In this document: piece by piece, positions 6,661 to 17,848 of the stretch
Layout: each line of letters starts with the position of its first letter
Position numbering within the stretch: the first letter of the stretch is position 1
From: an uncultured Chloroflexia bacterium
GTDB taxonomy: Bacteria; Chloroflexota; Dehalococcoidia; UBA2979
Length of the DNA stretch: 64,000 nt
Reading direction: 5' to 3'
Assembly (NCBI GenBank): GCA_963728205.1
Contig: CAVSIV010000006.1
Span: 830,831 to 894,830 of the forward strand
Made by a program: the position numbers and the translations under genes
Notes under the pieces: generated by a model
What the model saw: the letters and a program-made list of their open reading frames with translations, nothing else
Database searches by the model: none
What the model was told of the DNA's origin: nothing

Positions 6661-7142
6661 AGCAGTTGTCCTCCAATTGAGAACGTTGTCACTCGATAAC
6701 ACGCACTTCGATTCTCTGCGATGCCTCCTCTCGCCGCGTCCGGCTCCTCCGTGAGGGGGAGCGCCCCGTTCCTGGCAGAACGGCGGCCGGCGAGCCTTCT
6801 TTCCAAGCGGTGCTGATACCGCCGCTCGAGCAAAACGCCACCAGCGCCGCTCGAAATCACGCTCGCTGCGAACCTTCGAAATCCGCGACGGGCGGCGTGG
6901 TCCAAGACACACACCTCACGCCACGAGACTTAGAACGCCCCCGGGCAAGACTGAGTTAACAGCGGGGGTGGGCCTGATACGCAGTAAAGAGGTAACCGGG
7001 CAAGACGAGTGGCGCGACCTGACGAACGCCCGCAGGTCGATCCCCTATCGGGAGCGCGCTAGCCGGTGACCGCGCGATCGGCGACGATCGTCCAAGCATT
7101 GATCTCAGCACGACGCCGGCGCACCTGAAGGAAGCGGCTGCC

Positions 7143-7748
7143 ATGACGAACTCAAACCACCGACGCGCCGAGTCAGACGCGACCGCCGCGTTCGGCGGCA
7201 ACGGTCAGCCGGACGGACCGCGTCGCTGGTTTCGTGGACCATGGGGCGTGGTCGCGGCCGGTGGACTGATTACGGCAGTGCTTGCCGCCACGCTCGTGAT
7301 CCTGCTTCCGCGGGGCGATCACTCCCGCGAACCCGCGAAGACGACCACCCCAGTCGCGCATGTCGTTACCGGTGGCATTGGGGACCCACTTCGCGTCGGA
7401 TCGCTCGCCCTGAGGGTGATCGAAGTCAACGCGGCCTTCGATGGTAGCCACTATGCACCCGCGAACACCGCTACCTCCGCCGTCCATATCGCAGTGACTA
7501 ACGCAGGAGATACCGGCAATCCCATTCAGCTGGCGACAAAGGACTTTCGCCTGATCGACGAAGATGCAGGCGGCCATGGAACCGTGGGTTGCGCGCAATG
7601 TCCCGCGGTGATCGGCAACGTCAATCAGCTCGTTCCTAACGGCGGGATCGACGGGTGGTTGTACTTCGCGTTGCCCGCGGGAACGACAGCCAGCCAACTC
7701 GTCTACACCGGAGCTACCGGGATCACGGCCACGATCACGCTCCGCTAG
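7143..7748 (+). CDS. membrane-anchored hypothetical protein (DUF4352-like beta domain, tentative)
   Basis: 201 aa with one TM helix (WGVVAAGGLITAVLAATLVILL) followed by a beta-rich domain. Third-position GC is visibly lower than in neighbouring genes. Confidence 0.65.
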   Translation: MTNSNHRRAESDATAAFGGNGQPDGPRRWFRGPWGVVAAGGLITAVLAATLVILLPRGDHSREPAKTTTPVAHVVTGGIGDPLRVGSLALRVIEVNAAFDGSHYAPANTATSAVHIAVTNAGDTGNPIQLATKDFRLIDEDAGGHGTVGCAQCPAVIGNVNQLVPNGGIDGWLYFALPAGTTASQLVYTGATGITATITLR

Positions 7749-7759
7749 GCGAAGCGAAC

Positions 7760-8878
7760 CTACGGGGCCACGGCGTCGGGCGGGACAGTACCAACCGCCC
7801 GCGTCGCCGAGGGCACCACCGTCGCGGGCGCCGTCGAACTCGATGCCGCGGTTCCTCTCCCGTTCGGGGTCCCCGACGGACTCGCCGCTGGGGTGAGAGC
7901 ATCGGTTGTGGCCGGTATGGCGGTCCCCGTCGCCTGTACCGTCGCCGTCACCGTGCTTGTCGGCGTTTCGGTGGTGTCGGCCGTCGGCGTCTCCGTCGCA
8001 GTTACCTCGGACGTCGGCGTCGCCGTCTCCGTCGCCTCGGGCGTCGCCGTCGCCGTCTCCGTCGCCACAGGCGTCCCGGCGTCCCCGTGCGACTCGAGGT
8101 AGCGCGCCGCGGTCACGACGCCCTGGTCGGCCGTCACCTGCGCGGCGCTCAGCGCACCCTCGGCGCCCGCCTCGGGCTTCGCCGTCTGCAGCACCTGCCG
8201 GCTCTGGTTCGCGGCGCGCGCGTACTGCGCGACGGTGCCGGGGTCGACGCGCTCGGGCTGCGCGGCGATCTGCTGCTGCACCGAGGCGTTGTCCTCGGTC
8301 ACGCGGCGGAGGAGGTCGGTCTGCACGGGCACGCCGCGCTGCGTGTTGCTCGCGATCTCGGCGAGCGTGGTCTGCAGCCGTGCGAGCTGCGCGTCGAGCG
8401 AGCGCGGGGTCTGGTTCTCGACGGTCGGGCCGGTCGCCAGCTGCGGCGTGCCGGAAAGGCCGCCGCCGGCGAAGGCGGTGAAGGTGATCGCCGCGGCGGC
8501 GGCCGCGGCGGCCATCGGCGCGAACACCGAGACGACGCGGGTGCGCAGGCGGCGCCGGCGCTCGGCCGCGAGCGACACGGGCGCGCGCTCCATGCGGTGC
8601 AGGATCGCGGCGCGCGAGCGGGCGCGGTAGGAGTCGAAGGCGGGGCCATCGGTGGCGTCGGCGAAGAGGTGCTGGAGGACGGCGGCGGTCTGGACGAGGC
8701 CGGCGAGCGCGGGGTCTTCGCGCGGATCGACGTCGGGCTCGCGACCGGACGCGAGCTCCTCGAGCGCCTCGTCCAGGCGCTGGGCCTCGGCCAGGTCGGC
8801 GGCGTCCCCGGTGAAGAGGGGGTCCCCCCGCCGGGTATCCCCGGCGTCGAAGGAGTGCAGCGGCTGGTCTGCCGACAT
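7760..8878 (-). CDS. anti-sigma-factor-like membrane protein
   Basis: 372 aa from ATG 8876-8878 with a single TM helix (VVSVFAPMAAAAAAAAITFTAFAGG) and a T/E/A/P-rich extracytoplasmic tail. It lies downstream of the ECF sigma gene on the same strand. No zf-HC2 motif was seen. Confidence 0.65.
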   Translation of the reverse strand: MSADQPLHSFDAGDTRRGDPLFTGDAADLAEAQRLDEALEELASGREPDVDPREDPALAGLVQTAAVLQHLFADATDGPAFDSYRARSRAAILHRMERAPVSLAAERRRRLRTRVVSVFAPMAAAAAAAAITFTAFAGGGLSGTPQLATGPTVENQTPRSLDAQLARLQTTLAEIASNTQRGVPVQTDLLRRVTEDNASVQQQIAAQPERVDPGTVAQYARAANQSRQVLQTAKPEAGAEGALSAAQVTADQGVVTAARYLESHGDAGTPVATETATATPEATETATPTSEVTATETPTADTTETPTSTVTATVQATGTAIPATTDALTPAASPSGTPNGRGTAASSSTAPATVVPSATRAVGTVPPDAVAP

Positions 8879-9112
8879 CTCCGACCCGTTCCGGGCCGCC
8901 CACGCGTGGGGCGGCCACACTGTGCCGGTGAGTCGCCGGGCGGCTTGCGCCGGCCGCGCGCCATCGGGGCTGGCGGAGCATCGTCGGTGGCGCCGTGCCG
9001 TGGGTTCGCCCTGCGGCGACTGGCCCCCGCCAGGCTCGGCGGTCCGCGATGATCCTCTCGTGGTCTGCGCGACCGGCGGGCGTTAGGCCCGGGGGTCGCC
9101 TGCTGGTGGCGT

Positions 9113-9330
9113 CAGCAGCGGGCGGTACGCCCGCTGTGCGCCTGTGTGCGGCGGGCCGTGGCCCGCTGTGCGCCTGGCAGCGGGCGGGACGCCCGCTGTG
9201 CGCCTGTGTGCGGCGGGCCGTGGCCCGCTGTGCGCCTGGCAGCGGGCGGGACGCCCGCTGTGCGCCTGGGCAGCGGGCCTACCGCCCGCTGTGCGCCTGG
9301 CAGCGGGCGATACGCCCGCTGTGCGCCTGG
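9113..9330. repeat. tandem array of seven hairpin units between the sigma and anti-sigma genes
   Basis: Units of 29-33 bp. Each is a hairpin, either CAGCGGGCG-NNN-CGCCCGCTG or GCGGGCC-GT-GGCCCGC, followed by TGCGCCTGG. The first four units form two 62-bp higher-order repeats. There are no spacers. Confidence 0.9.
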
Positions 9331-9356
9331 GTCGCGGACGGACGTCCGCGGCGTTC

Positions 9357-10232
9357 CTACTGGTCCGCGCTCCGCACCCAACTGGGCTCGGGGCGCGTGT
9401 CGCGGAGGATCTGCTTCAGGCGCTGCACGCCCTTGTGCTGCAGCACCTTGACGTTGCCCTGCTGCTTCCCGAGCGCCTCGGCCGTTTCCGCGACGGAGAG
9501 GCCGGCGCCGAATCGCAGGCGAATCACGTCGCGCTGCGCTTCGGGGAGCAGTTCGACCGCGTCAAAGACCTCCTCGATCGTCAACTGCGTCTCGGCGAGG
9601 TCCTGCGGGCCGCGGCGCTCGTCCGCGATCCAGTCCGGGACCTCGGCGCCCGGGTCGTCCTTCACCACGCGGCGATGGACGGTGGCCCGGCGGTGGAACG
9701 AGACGACGTGGTTGTGAGCGATGCGGAACAGCCAGGCCGCGAAGGGGCTGCGCTCCCCCGCGCCGATGTCCCGCCACTCGAACCCGTCGACCGCCCCCAG
9801 GACCTTGAGGAAGATCTCTTCCGCGAGGTCCTCCGCGTCCGTCTCGTTGCCGACGCGCGCCAGGCAGTAGCGATACAGCCTGGTGACGTACGCGTCGTAC
9901 AGGAGGCCTACCGCCTCCAGGTCTCCGTGAGCGGCACGCTGCACGTACTCGCGCTCGACGGCGACGGACAGCTGGTTCGGATTCGACGGCGCTGGTCTCG
10001 CGGGATCCCCCGTTCGTCGCGGGGAGTCGGCAGCGGGATCGGCGCCCTCGGCGTGTGGCGAGATGTCTGCCACCGGGCTTCCCTTCGCGCCGGCCCCCGC
10101 TGCGACCGGCCCCGGTGGGCCGTCCAGTGCATCGGGATCGCGGGACGGGCTCCCCGCACCGGCATGACCGGGGAGGTGCGCGTCCGCACGAGTATAGGTG
10201 GCCTGCGCCAAGGGGAGAGGTGTGTCGGACAT
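9357..10232 (-). CDS. ECF (sigma-70 family) RNA polymerase sigma factor
   Basis: 291 aa from ATG 10230-10232. Region 2 (LYRYCLARVGNETDAEDLAEEIFLKV, FAAWLFRIAHNHVVSFHRR) and region 4 (LPEAQRDVIRLRFGAGLSVAETAEALGKQQGNVKVLQHKGVQRLK) are present. It has a P/A/G-rich N-terminal extension of about 95 aa. Confidence 0.9.
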   Translation of the reverse strand: MSDTPLPLAQATYTRADAHLPGHAGAGSPSRDPDALDGPPGPVAAGAGAKGSPVADISPHAEGADPAADSPRRTGDPARPAPSNPNQLSVAVEREYVQRAAHGDLEAVGLLYDAYVTRLYRYCLARVGNETDAEDLAEEIFLKVLGAVDGFEWRDIGAGERSPFAAWLFRIAHNHVVSFHRRATVHRRVVKDDPGAEVPDWIADERRGPQDLAETQLTIEEVFDAVELLPEAQRDVIRLRFGAGLSVAETAEALGKQQGNVKVLQHKGVQRLKQILRDTRPEPSWVRSADQ

Positions 10233-10310
10233 CTCCCACCGCACTATCAACAACGGTACGGACCGTGACCGGGTTAACGGGGGGCGCAGGCGCGGGGGCC
10301 GCATGAGGTG

Positions 10311-10337
10311 TAACGAAGGCGGAGGGGGATTCGTTCC
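10311..10337 (-). promoter_or_regulatory. ECF-type promoter candidate upstream of the sigma gene (autoregulation)
   Basis: On the minus strand, GGAAC (10333-10337), spacer GAATCCCCCTCCGCCTT (17 nt), then CGTTA (10311-10315). It sits between the NYN stop codon and the sigma ATG. Confidence 0.5.
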
Positions 10338-10370
10338 GGGGCGGTTTGCATGGCGCGCGGTCACGCGCCT

Positions 10371-10982
10371 TTACCAGCTCGCTGGCTTCGAGAAGGTCCC
10401 CGTGGCGTCCGTGAGTGTGGTCGGGAACTGACTTGCGGAGAGGACCCCCGCGCGAATCGGTTTGTAGAAGGTCGAGACGTTCCGCAGATCGTACGCCTGC
10501 TTCTTGTGGGGGTTCAGCAGTCCCACCGGCAGCCGCAGGTCATTCATCACGAGCTCAATCGGCGTCTTGAGGTCGGAGTCGTTGGAGATGACGACCGCCT
10601 GTTCGAACCCTCCACGATGCGCATCGTGGAGCGGGTGGCTGGCCAGATTCACGTCGGAGCCCTTCTCCTCGGTGTCATGGACCCACACGTATCCGCCTCC
10701 GTTCACGAGGGGGCGGGACTTCTGCTTTGCGAGGAAGCGCCCGAGGTAGACCGTGACGCACGGAATGTCGCAAGGGCCCGCAGGTCGATCTGTTGTCGCT
10801 GGGCCGCCTGCGGGTCCGACGGGCGGCTGGTCACGGGTGCTGTGAAGTAGCGGATGCGCTGAACTTGATGGCCGGGGAAGCAGGTGCCGGCACAGCGTCT
10901 CGATGTCGATCCACTTGTACACGGTGCCCTTCAGGGCGCCGTAGTACAGGTTGAAACCGTCCACGTACACATTCGTGCGCAT
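10371..10982 (-). CDS. NYN (LabA/PIN-like) domain protein with an internally frame-swapped segment
   Basis: The 203-aa frame is open. MRTNVYVDGFNLYYGALKG and EEKGSDVNLA ... VVISNDSDL ... LLNPHK are NYN-like. About 37 codons (10765-10877) are read in a non-conserved frame. The +1 frame over that stretch encodes the expected GHQVQRIRYFTAPVTSRPSDPQAAQRQQIDLRALAT. Confidence 0.7.
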   Translation of the reverse strand: MRTNVYVDGFNLYYGALKGTVYKWIDIETLCRHLLPRPSSSAHPLLHSTRDQPPVGPAGGPATTDRPAGPCDIPCVTVYLGRFLAKQKSRPLVNGGGYVWVHDTEEKGSDVNLASHPLHDAHRGGFEQAVVISNDSDLKTPIELVMNDLRLPVGLLNPHKKQAYDLRNVSTFYKPIRAGVLSASQFPTTLTDATGTFSKPASW

Positions 10983-11306
10983 AGGCAGAGACCCCCGTCA
11001 CCGGGGGTCTCGCGCCCAGCGGCCGAGGCCACTGGGGGGATATCGGGATCGATCCTGACCCGCCCCGGTCAACATGTCACGCGAGAACGGCCAACAACTA
11101 CCCGCAAATGTGGTGGCCGGGTCCGCCCGCAGCGAAAGCTACCAGCGTTCCTCGCGCGACCGGCACGACACCTGCGGATTTGCAGGGGCGTGCCCGCAAT
11201 CCAGACGGTGCTAGGAAGGGGCCGGCGAGCGAGGATCGCATGCGAACCGCCGTCGGGCCGACCGGCGGCGCGCAGAGCCAACGGGCGGCCACGGGAGTGT
11301 GCGTGT

Positions 11307-14857: not shown

Positions 14858-14893
14858 CGGGGCGCCGGGCGGCGATCGCCGACACGCCGCCAC

Positions 14894-15010
14894 CCACAGT
14901 CGCCACCCACAGTCGCCAGCCACAGTCGGTACCCACAGTCGCCACCCACAGTCGCCACCCACAGTCGCCACCCACAGTCGCCAGCCACAGTCGCCACCCA
15001 CAGTCGCGAA
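14894..15010. repeat. 9 tandem copies of a 13-bp unit CCACAGTCGCCA(C/G) abutting a palindromic element
   Basis: CACAGT recurs every 13 nt from 14895 to 14999. The next period lands on the first bases (CCACAGCGGCGGC) of the element at 15011. A period of 13 is not compatible with coding. Confidence 0.9.
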
Positions 15011-15107
15011 CCACAGCGGCGGCAGATATGCCGCCGACAGCCCGCGGACGCCAGTCCGCGCGGCTAGCGCCGCGCATCTGTCGGCGGCATATCTGCCGCC
15101 GCTGTGG
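15011..15107. repeat. double-hairpin palindromic element, subfamily A, GATA-loop variant
   Basis: The arms read CCACAGCGGCGGCAGATATGCCGCCGACAG. Both carry the same C-to-T loop change, so the two arms remain complementary. Confidence 0.9.
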
Positions 15108-15285: not shown

Positions 15286-17848
15286 GTGACGCTACGGCTG
15301 GTCGGGCAGGACGACGGCGACGCGCCGGGGGCGGGCATCTTCGACGGCGTGCGCGTCGTCGACACGACGACCGGCATCGCGGGCCCGTACGCGACGATGT
15401 TCCTCGCCGATCACGGCGCCGACGTGATCAAGGTCGAGCCGCCGGGCGGCGATCCGTTTCGCGCGAGCCTCGCGTTCCAGACGCTGAACCGCGGCAAGCG
15501 CTCCGCGGTGCTCGACCTCACGAGCGACAGCGGCCGCTCGCGCTTCGCGCTGCTCGCCGCCTCGGCGGACGTGGTCGTCGTCGACGAGCCGCAGCGCCGC
15601 GCGGCGACGCTGGGCATCGACTACGCGACGCTGGCGGCGGCGAACCGCGCGCTCGTCTACCTCGCCGTGCCGCCGTTCGGCGAGCGCGGGCCGTTCGTGG
15701 ACCGGCCGGCGTCGCCGGCACTGGTGGCCGCGGTGAGCGGGCTGCTCGCGTCGCAGATGTCGTACTCCGGCGACCCGGTGCACCTCGTGCTGCCGCTGGC
15801 GTCGTACGGCACGGGCGCGATGGGCGCGGCGGCGGTGGCGGGGGCGCTGTACGCGCGCGAACGGTGGGGGCGCGGGCAGTTCGTCGAGGTCTCGGAGCTG
15901 GCGGGCGCGCTCGCGCTGCAGGTCGGCGGCGTGCGGTCGGACCAGGTGCCGGGCGCGCCGGACCGCGCGCCGAGCCCGTTCGGCGCGAAGGGCCGGCTGC
16001 CGGCATACCGCCTCTACCAGGCCGCCGACGGGAAGTGGTTCTTCCTCGCGTGCGGCTCGGCGCAGTTCTTCCATCGCATGCTGATCGCCATCGACCACCC
16101 GGAGCTGGCGGCGGACCCGCGGCTCGAGAACGCGCCGTGGGGGCTGTTCACGCCCGAGGCGATCGAGGCCCTCGTCCCGATGCTGGAGTCGCTCTTCGCG
16201 ACGCAGCCGCGCGACCACTGGCTGCGCCTCTTCCACGACGCCGACGTCCCGGCGCAGCCGGTGCAGACGCGCGACGAGTACTTCGCGAGCGACGTGGTGG
16301 CCGCGAACGCGATGCGGCAGTCGGTGCACGACGACGCGCTGGGCGAGGTCGAGATGATGGGCGTGCCGCTGGTGACGACGGCCGCGCCCGGCGCGATCCG
16401 CGGTCCCGCGCCGAAGCTCGGCGAGCACACCGACGTGGTGCTCGCGGAGGCGGCGACGGAGCGGCGCGCCGACGCGCGGCTGCGCGCGGTGCCGTCGCGC
16501 GGCCCGCTTCCGGCCGGCCGTGATCGTGAGGCGTCCACTGCACACGGCGGGCCGGAAGCCCGCCGCGCGCCCGGGCCGGGCGAGCGGGCCGGTTCGGGCG
16601 AGCAGCCCGCGATGCTCGAAGGGCTGCGCGTCCTCGAATCTCTCCTCGTTCATCGCGGGGCCCGTCCTGCCCCGCCATCTCGCGATGCTCGGCGCCGACG
16701 TGACGAAGGTGGAGGCGCCGACGGGCGACGCGTTCCGGCAGATGGGGCTCGGATTCCTCGGGTGGAACCAGGGCAAGCGCGACATCGCGCTCGACCTGCG
16801 CCTGCCGGCGGCGCGCGAGGTCGCCTACCGCATCGTGCGCGAGGCCGACGTCGTGGTGCAGAACTTCCGGCCGGGCGTGGCCGAGCGGCTGGGGGTCGAC
16901 GTCGCGACGCTGCGGGCGATCAACCCGCGGGTCGTCTACCTCGAGTCGCCCGGCTGGGGCGACGACGAGTCGCTGCGCGCGGCGCCGGGCTTCGACCCGC
17001 TCGTGCAGGCGGTGTCGGGCGCGATGGCCGCGCAGGGCGGCGCCGCCGAGCCGGTCTTCCACACGGTCGCGCTGAACGACGTGATGACGCCGGCGATCGG
17101 CACCTTCGGCGTGCTCGCCGCGCTGTACCACCGCGAGCGCACCGGCGACGGCCAGCTGGTGAAGACCGCGCTCGCCCGCACGGGCCTCGCGATCCAGGCG
17201 GGCGAGTTCACGCGCGTGGTCCGCGCGCGGCGGCCTGCAGGCCCGCCGTGGAGCGAGTCGGCGCTGGATGCCCGCCCGCCCGCGCCCCCTCGCGCTTCGG
17301 ACCTCGGCACCGGCGAGTTCCCCGCCGGCGGGCGCGACTACCCCGGCCCGAGCGCCGGACGCCGCTGGTACCGCTGCGGCGACGACCGCGACCTCTACGT
17401 CGAGGCGGGCGCGCCCGACCAGCGCCGCGCGCTGGTCGCCACCGCCGGCGCGGCGCTCGACGCGGACGCGCTCGCGGCGCCCCTCGGCACGCACGTCTGC
17501 GAGACGGCGACGGACGCGCTGGCGTCGGCGTTCCAGACGCGGGCGCGCGACGAGTGGGTCGCGGCGCTCGACGCCGCCGGCGTGCCGTGCGCGCCGATCG
17601 TCGCGCGGTCGGAGCTGCTGGACGCCGCGCACATCCGCGCGAACGGCCTGGTGGTCGACCAGGACGACCCGCAGTGGGGGCGCACCACCAACACCGGCAT
17701 GCTGATCCGCGCCGCGGGCACGCCCGGCCGCATCGTGCTGCGCGCGCCGGCGCTCTCCGAGCACGCGACCGAGATCCTCGACGAGCTCGGCTACTCGGCG
17801 GAGGAGCAGCGCGCGCTGGTCGCAGCCGGCGCGGTCAAGCTGCCGTAG
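15286..17848 (+). pseudogene. tandem-fused family III (CaiB/BaiF) CoA-transferase, interrupted by a +1 frameshift near 16639
   Basis: Domain 1 runs from GTG 15286 (RBS GAGGGGGA) and contains FDGVRVVDTTTGIAGPYATMFLADHGADVIKVE. That frame has no stop codon and runs into MLEGLRVLE. The rest of domain 2 (SSFIAGPVLPRHLAMLGADVTKVE ... to 17848) is in the next frame, which is ORF 16520-17848. Removing one base near 16636-16645 restores RVLELSSFIAGP. Confidence 0.7.

Follow-up and report, generated by a model that had tools for sequence, protein, structure and literature searches.

A head-to-tail array of probable REP-type hairpins lies between an ECF sigma gene and its putative anti-sigma gene in a high-G+C Chloroflexota genome

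Genes for ECF sigma factors and their anti-sigma factors normally stand next to each other. At the locus studied here, a gap of 478 nt separates the two, and a preliminary description had placed in it a tandem array of seven hairpins. This raises the questions of what the array is, how it came to lie between a regulator and its presumed inhibitor, and whether it is kept there for the ratio of the two proteins. We analysed the locus within a stretch of 64,000 nt (the window; 73% G+C) and against the whole genome to which it belongs, which comprises 4.13 Mb in six contigs with 72% G+C. Judging from this analysis, the array is probably a lineage-specific palindromic repeat of the REP type that was amplified in place into a head-to-tail cluster and is tolerated as a passenger.

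Both genes are encoded on the minus strand, and the array therefore follows the stop codon of the sigma gene and precedes the ATG of the partner gene at 8878. The features of the locus are listed below in window coordinates; the plus label of the array denotes the strand on which each hairpin is followed by its TGCGCCTG tail.

7760..8878, minus strand: putative anti-sigma factor gene (the partner gene), with homologues next to orthologous sigma genes
8879..9063, minus strand: spacer without other copies in the genome, 185 nt of unique DNA before the partner ATG
8894-8916: hairpin GGCCGCCC-N7-GGGCGGCC, 16-38 nt upstream of the partner ATG
9064..9099, no strand assigned: degenerate family-like hairpin, folding at about -22 kcal/mol
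9100..9118, no strand assigned: small hairpin CTGCTG-N7-CAGCAG beside U1, -7.3 to -7.7 kcal/mol
9113..9330, plus strand: array of units U1-U7
9113-9144: U1, type A
9145-9176: U2, type B
9177-9206: U3, type A
9207-9238: U4, type B
9239-9269: U5, type A
9270-9299: U6, type A (A'), loop reversed
9300-9330: U7, type A
9331..9356, no strand assigned: degenerate eighth hairpin CGCGGAC-N4-GTCCGCG, -13.5 kcal/mol on the transcript strand and -17.7 kcal/mol on the plus strand
9357..10232, minus strand: ECF-type sigma factor gene, stop codon TAG at 9359-9357, frame open to 10364

The assignment of the upstream gene to the ECF sigma factors was confirmed by Pfam matches to Sigma70_r2 (7e-13), Sigma70_r4 (8e-12) and Sigma70_ECF (5e-5), and its start is probably the ATG at 10232, as judged from a GGGAG just upstream. 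The partner gene gave no Pfam or NCBIfam match and thus contains no recognised anti-sigma domain. In its product, a conserved cytoplasmic N-domain is joined by a single alanine-rich membrane segment to an outer domain that is likewise conserved, and the protein ends in a Thr/Pro-rich tail; the topology of the two domains and the membrane segment fits that of an anti-sigma factor. At 11 other loci, a homologue of 31-54% identity directly follows the orthologous sigma gene. Because these homologues begin with MTDQPI.., compared with MSADQPL.. here, the partner start at 8878 is supported, and the length of the gap (478 nt, 8879-9356) is confirmed with it. As in an ECF sigma/anti-sigma operon, the sigma factor contains regions 2 and 4 and the partner is conserved directly downstream.

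The ECF sigma factor BldN of Streptomyces is paired with the membrane anti-sigma factor RsbN, a single-pass protein with no recognisable anti-sigma domain. Our pair resembles it in that the best NCBIfam model for the sigma factor is that of the BldN-family ECF factors (6.6e-40) and that a single-pass membrane protein without a recognised anti-sigma domain is encoded downstream. Unlike BldN, however, the sigma factor scores below the cut-off of that model, and the partner is an anti-sigma factor only putatively, as judged from its sequence. We know of no hairpin array at the BldN-RsbN locus of Streptomyces.

The related loci show that the gap is not the ancestral arrangement. In the 11 loci, ten from other genera of the same family and one on a metagenome contig, the partner start ranges from a 35-nt overlap with the sigma gene to +60 nt from its stop codon, and five of them display the 4-nt ATGA/GTGA overlap that is a typical signature of translational coupling. 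The adjacency of sigma and anti-sigma genes assumed in the preliminary description is thus borne out for this family, and the 478-nt gap is therefore derived. The closest relative, a sister species of the same genus (identity of 83% in the sigma DNA and of 54% in the partner protein), also has a spacer at this site. It measures 149 nt (JGI metagenome contig Ga0194121_10024059, hereafter L029, 2852-3000) and contains one 10-bp GC hairpin and then about 45 G. The G run could be a genuine homopolymer, or sequencing may have produced it as an artefact that hides further repeats. Three other assemblies of the sister species break at the G run in the spacer. Among the same-genus genomes, the orthologous sigma gene was found only in G001, which belongs to the same species as L029; its contig ends within a poly-C run, 75 nt beyond the sigma stop codon. 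The assemblies of G001-G003 lack the partner gene.

No homology was detected between our spacer and that of the sister species (score 25, below shuffles). Since the sister species also has a spacer, with no spacer sequence in common, a spacer at this site is older than the array, while the array itself is specific to the present genome. Upstream of the sigma gene, by comparison, a block is kept in the sister species with a score of 30, as compared with at most 25 in 200 shuffles, and probably represents the leader or promoter of that gene. The block reads CGTTAACC..CCGTTnTT.AT.A.TGCGGTGGGAG and extends over 10233-10290 in the window and 1929-1975 in L029. A pattern search with the 3' end of the sigma gene matched only one unrelated sigma gene.

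These comparisons bear on a further reading. The preliminary description had suggested that the stem-loops could uncouple the stoichiometry of the two genes through partial termination, RNase protection or processing; in this reading, the array is a selected intercistronic attenuator, kept for an excess of sigma factor by these routes, with the number of units tuning the ECF response. The array does sit where dosage between the two partners matters, the ancestral coupling has been lost, and the spacer of the sister species is structured as well, which suggests that such spacers may be tolerated or favoured in the genus. The content of the spacer, however, is not conserved between the two species, and the composition of the array and the distribution of its repeat, given below, also speak against this reading.

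The array itself was found as described, with a unit length of 30-32 nt. Seven units follow each other head-to-tail over 9113-9330 with a higher order of 62 nt: Tandem Repeats Finder returned a period of 30 with 7.0 copies and 79% matches at 9115-9330 and a period of 62 with 3.6 copies and 91% matches at 9115-9337, and a separate repeat search confirmed the register of the units. Every unit is formed by a GC hairpin and a tail TGCGCCTG(G), always on the same side of the hairpin. Seven exact copies of the 16-mer GCCCGCTGTGCGCCTG are found in the array, as compared with one in the rest of the 4.1-Mb genome, and the units are thus not a product of chance. Two types can be distinguished. Type A (n=5) reads CAGCGGGCG-NNN-CGCCCGCTG and has a stem of 9 bp, or 8 bp in U6, while type B (n=2) reads (TGTG)CGGCGGGCC-GTG-GCCCGCTG and is followed by the same tail; they are arranged in the order A B A B A A' A. 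Across the array, the stems comprise 7-9 bp of GC and the loops 3-5 nt, and single units fold at -16 to -21 kcal/mol on either strand. The sigma transcript bears the complement, i.e., GGCGCAC and then the hairpin, with CCAGGCGC after each unit. The two 62-nt A-B dimers are 98% identical, which points to a recent local duplication.

The units abut with linkers of 0-4 nt and no spacers, and the array is thus not CRISPR-like. Its units are single hairpins in direct tandem and show neither the alternation of REP and inverted REP known from BIMEs of Escherichia coli nor the inverted REP pair that defines a REPIN. No Rfam family was found at E<=1 in 7000-11000, and none reached its gathering score in the whole window.

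We also considered that the array might result from misassembly of a region rich in repeats, or might be a repeat that codes for protein. Long-read assemblies are prone to errors at high-GC hairpin repeats, and open frames cross the array on both strands. The array, however, lies inside a contig of 1.87 Mb with intact genes on either side, and its units differ at defined positions (loops GTA, GGA, TAC and ATA), which argues against collapse or stutter. As to coding, a codon-bias gene caller found no gene in the gap, and the open frames are the usual spurious frames of a genome with 72% G+C. Both possibilities are therefore extremely improbable.

Further hairpins flank the array. The degenerate eighth hairpin, whose stem starts 6 nt past the sigma stop codon on the transcript, is the fifth copy, at 65% identity, of repeat family D1. 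For the degenerate hairpin on the other side, at 9064-9099, a blastn-short search returned look-alikes at C6:492475 (97% over 29 nt), C4:211185, C1:444295 and C1:1089533 (here and below, C1 to C6 are contigs of the genome).

To which family, then, do the array units belong? The preliminary description had suspected a second REP-type family. A pattern search located the hairpin together with its tail at further places in the genome, and a covariance model built from 18 copies (R1; up to 150 candidates scored per genome) bears out the suspicion. With 150 candidates scored, R1 yielded 63 matches at E<=1e-3 in the own genome, corresponding to 61 distinct sites spread over four of the six contigs. 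The family is restricted to this genome: R1 gave one weak match in 40 relatives, most of which are fragmented assemblies in which repeats assemble poorly, with three single-contig genomes at family level; a search of 185,579 species, each represented by one genome, gave no match to the exact consensus of either subfamily, and metagenome contigs gave none to the consensus of the array unit.

The sites fall into two subfamilies. Subfamily II, the array type, follows (A)GCAGCGGGCG-NNN-CGCCCGCTGTGCGCC with variants like CCGCGGGCG../..CGCCCGCGG and accounts for about 30 of the 61 sites, of which over half belong to arrays. Subfamily I follows GCACACGGC(G/A)GGCCTGAAGCC(C/T)GCCGCGCGCC with about 30 copies; as flank alignment showed, these copies pair up in inverted orientation as the arms of doublets about 130 nt long, similar to REPINs. 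An example is found in the window at 16540-16575 (C6:847370-847405), in addition to about 30 further sites in the genome. The doublet arms are GGCGCGCGGC(G/A)GGCTTCAGGCC(C/T)GCCGTGTGC and its complement; the hairpins between them, GGCCRCCTC..GAGGTGGCC(ACCTC), look like Shine-Dalgarno and anti-Shine-Dalgarno sequences, and these doublets constitute a second REPIN-like family without an adjoining RAYT gene.

In an alignment of 32 distinct members, 94% of the cells of the 9-bp stem are paired. Double changes were counted in 28 cells as compared with 8 +/- 2.2 in shuffles, none of 500 shuffles being as high, although this count is biased, as the members had been selected with a structure-aware model. 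The stem thus appears to be preserved by paired changes among the copies. It is followed by a conserved flank (T/C)G(C/T)GCC, which corresponds to GGCGCA(C) before the stem on the other strand.

The likeness of the unit to the arm of the REPIN present in the window, which had also been proposed, turned out to be weak. The shared CACAGCGG occurs in 355 copies against a median of 324 for 8-mers of the same composition, and stems and loops differ. A shared origin with the REPIN arm was rejected, as CACAGCGG is not over-represented.

We then related the sites to a gene set from our own rough codon-bias caller (3,307 genes, about 78% coding). Outside the called genes lie 54 of the 61 sites, and five of the seven 'inside' sites belong to one array with a doubtful gene call. 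Regions between convergent genes hold 22 of the 54 sites (background 17%) and those between divergent genes two (background 19%); these counts are descriptive, as sites within one array are not independent. Like REP elements, the family is thus found preferentially at gene 3' ends and seldom in the promoter regions of divergent genes. All 16 copies of subfamily I within 60 nt of a stop codon share one orientation. This bias was rejected as a sign of a role in RNA, because the outer arms of inverted doublets produce it by geometry. For subfamily II, the orientation near stop codons is uninformative (5 versus 2).

REP singletons and head-tail dimers are tandemly reiterated in Pseudomonas and other bacteria (Di Nocera et al. 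2013, PMC3733652). BIME-2 elements stand in tandem, with good conservation among the copies of one locus but differing copy numbers from strain to strain, and the Y1 enzyme associated with REPs is able to build such tandem copies in vitro (Ton-Hoang et al. 2012, PMC3333891). Known functions of REPs include termination or attenuation of transcription, stabilisation of mRNA and topological insulation (PMC3333891). The array resembles the tandem REP clusters and BIME-2 of E. coli in several respects. Its unit is a short, stem-loop-forming palindrome of the 20-40 nt class with many dispersed extragenic copies, the stem appears to be kept by paired substitutions, and a conserved unpaired flank is found at one end. 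The preference for 3' UTRs and spacers within operons, the near-identical local tandem copies and the alternation of two unit types (A/B here, y/z2 in BIME-2) are likewise shared. Like hosts of REP/RAYT systems, the genome also encodes RAYT-like Y1 enzymes.

There are, however, clear differences. Unlike E. coli BIMEs, the array units are all oriented head-to-tail. Unlike the GTAG and CGTC super-families of REPs (Di Nocera et al. 2013), the flank reads G(T/C)GCGCC, and GTAG is found in only 2-3 copies of subfamily I. In contrast to REP/RAYT systems, no RAYT gene is flanked by the R1 family. Given the lack of a GTAG or CGTC tag, the head-to-tail arrangement and the lack of a cognate RAYT, the family therefore falls outside these super-families. 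The host, a member of the Chloroflexota with 72% G+C, also sets it apart from these REPs and BIMEs, as does the restriction of the family to a single one of the searched species genomes. With REPIN/RAYT systems (Bertels and Rainey 2011, PMC3116915) the genome shares the inverted doublets of subfamily I and another REPIN family that brackets a RAYT-like gene 5 kb from the array; the array units, single hairpins in direct tandem, are unlike REPINs in this respect.

The array is one of many in this genome. At a minimum length of 120 nt and a minimum period of 18, Tandem Repeats Finder reported 86 arrays, and 55 of these, about 16 kb in total, are intergenic with strongly self-folding units; 23 of the 55 lie between co-directional and 13 between divergent genes. 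The largest, at C6:821783-822660 and 8 kb upstream of the window, extends over 878 nt and contains 32.5 direct tandem copies of the 27-nt hairpin GTCGGCGGCGTGTCTGCCGCCGCTTTG, which is the hairpin of the REPIN arm. A 427-nt array at C6:1638515-1638941 consists of 7.9 copies of a 55-nt unit (Tandem Repeats Finder), CCGCCCGCC-GCAG-GGCGGGCGG plus TGCGCC, and is flanked by PII (glnB-like) and glnD-like genes on the same strand, as identified by eye from their translations; this may be another regulator pair split by hairpins. At C6:1737626-1738154, a higher-order array with three exact units of subfamily II lies 133 nt upstream of a dnaN-like gene (by eye) and could overlap the replication origin region.

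The genome contains seven matches to Y1_Tnp, six of which are RAYT-like, and several of the RAYT-like genes are bracketed by hairpin repeats of their own. One of them, bracketed by REPIN copies, is found in the window at about 14.3-14.9 kb. Between its stop codon and the next REPIN copy, a 13-nt tandem repeat, CGCCACCCACAGT, extends over 14875-15042 with about 12 copies, in register with the REPIN end. The best Y1_Tnp match, C6:175252-176416 (62 bits, full-length), is IS200-like rather than RAYT-like; behind it lies a tandem array of 693 nt with units of 81-114 nt. None of the six RAYT-like genes is flanked by R1 matches; their flanks carry other hairpins. The gene at C1:1108762-1109330 is flanked by inverted GGCGAGC and the hairpin GG(A/G)GGCG-NNN-CGCC(C/T)TCC. 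Its product may be the nearest candidate for a cognate enzyme, as the 7-nt flank and the GGCG-topped stem resemble the array unit. Class 3 Y1 enzymes with atypical hairpins have reportedly been described.

The distribution of the arrays also bears on the argument, made in the preliminary description, that a genome-wide repeat with no positional preference would count against a regulatory role. The first part applies here, with 63 model matches and an array that is one of 55. The second part does not, given the bias towards gene 3' ends.

Hairpins may have a more general role at transcript ends in this genome. Hairpin-plus-T terminators follow 38 of 3,302 genes, as compared with 15-17 in controls, and the genome seems to be without ordinary intrinsic terminators. 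Perfect GC hairpins of at least 8 bp, in turn, were found 595 times after stop codons versus 295 times before start codons, and it is plausible that tail-less hairpins form RNA 3' ends. One alternative builds on this point: the hairpins would end the sigma RNA, and the partner would use a separate promoter in the 185-nt spacer, making the locus two transcription units. The scarcity of hairpin-plus-T terminators, by which tail-less hairpins may mark RNA 3' ends, fits this alternative, as do the preference of the family for gene 3' ends and the unique DNA upstream of the partner ATG. However, no T-run follows any array unit and a terminator scan found no terminator-like site in the gap. A promoter scan detected no sigma-70-like promoter in 7500-10600, and inspection by eye revealed no ECF-type GGAAC-N15-18-CGT with usable spacing in the gap. 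Moreover, the spacer shares no block with that of the sister species, whereas the region upstream of the sigma gene keeps one. We thus consider two transcription units unlikely. A candidate of the same ECF-type motif upstream of the sigma gene was rejected, since it is not conserved in relatives.

The excess of tail-less GC hairpins after stop codons, together with the rarity of hairpin-plus-T terminators, would also suit the selected attenuator introduced above. Against it stands that the unit is a dispersed repeat, with 54 other intergenic arrays in all kinds of spacers, 13 of them divergent, and that the 98% identity of the dimers indicates a recent expansion and not a long-kept structure. 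Selection for the sigma/partner ratio has left no sign that we could see, and we regard the attenuator as distinctly unlikely. As one of 55 similar intergenic arrays, the array at this locus is most simply a tolerated passenger.

The passenger reading suggests the following course of events. One unit of the dispersed family would have come into a short spacer after the sigma stop codon and would then have been amplified in place, the 62-nt A-B dimer being the latest step. Slippage, unequal recombination between hairpin units or possibly a RAYT-like single-strand transposase could account for the amplification. We infer that the repeat has been mobile; no RAYT-like gene is flanked by the R1 family. 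The insertion would have ended the ancestral translational coupling of the two genes.

Co-transcription of the two genes is the simplest assumption, because no promoter-like site was found in the region and the 185-nt spacer holds no conserved block. Transcription through the array would place about ten stem-loops of -13 to -22 kcal/mol each between the two cistrons, the first of them within reach of a ribosome at the sigma stop codon. RNA polymerase would pause at these stem-loops or in part terminate there, and 3'-to-5' exonucleases would be blocked by them. RNA comprising only the sigma gene would then outlast or outnumber the full-length transcript, leaving the partner protein in deficit relative to the sigma factor. 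These effects on RNA are a prediction by analogy with the behaviour of REPs and BIMEs in E. coli. In the malE-malF operon of that bacterium, REPs inside the operon reportedly act as stabilisers, and transcription attenuation is said to be associated with BIMEs. As at malE-malF, the stem-loops here stand between two co-directional cistrons and more of the upstream product would be expected. Unlike there, the effect at our locus is predicted and would involve about ten hairpins instead of two. The partners also differ, being a regulator and its putative inhibitor, so that a skew would alter signalling and not only the yield of transporter subunits.

A more far-reaching scheme, which we consider very unlikely, would make tail-less GC hairpins of the REP type a general signal for RNA 3' ends in this genome and the arrays attenuators of variable copy number. 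Slippage of units would then provide a heritable dial for the sigma/anti-sigma ratio, i.e., a contingency-type switch for an envelope-stress regulator.

The locus constitutes a natural experiment, in which a regulator and its putative inhibitor, presumably coupled in translation in every more distant relative covered here, are set 478 nt apart through about ten stem-loops. If the predicted skew towards the sigma factor is true, selfish repeats can rewire the stoichiometry of signalling; equal expression of both genes, by contrast, would mark such arrays as passengers that are silent in transcription. In both cases the repeat as such belongs to a familiar kind, and the family takes REP-type elements and their tandem amplification into a high-G+C lineage of the Chloroflexota, with a flank motif that is new and an arrangement that is head-to-tail throughout.
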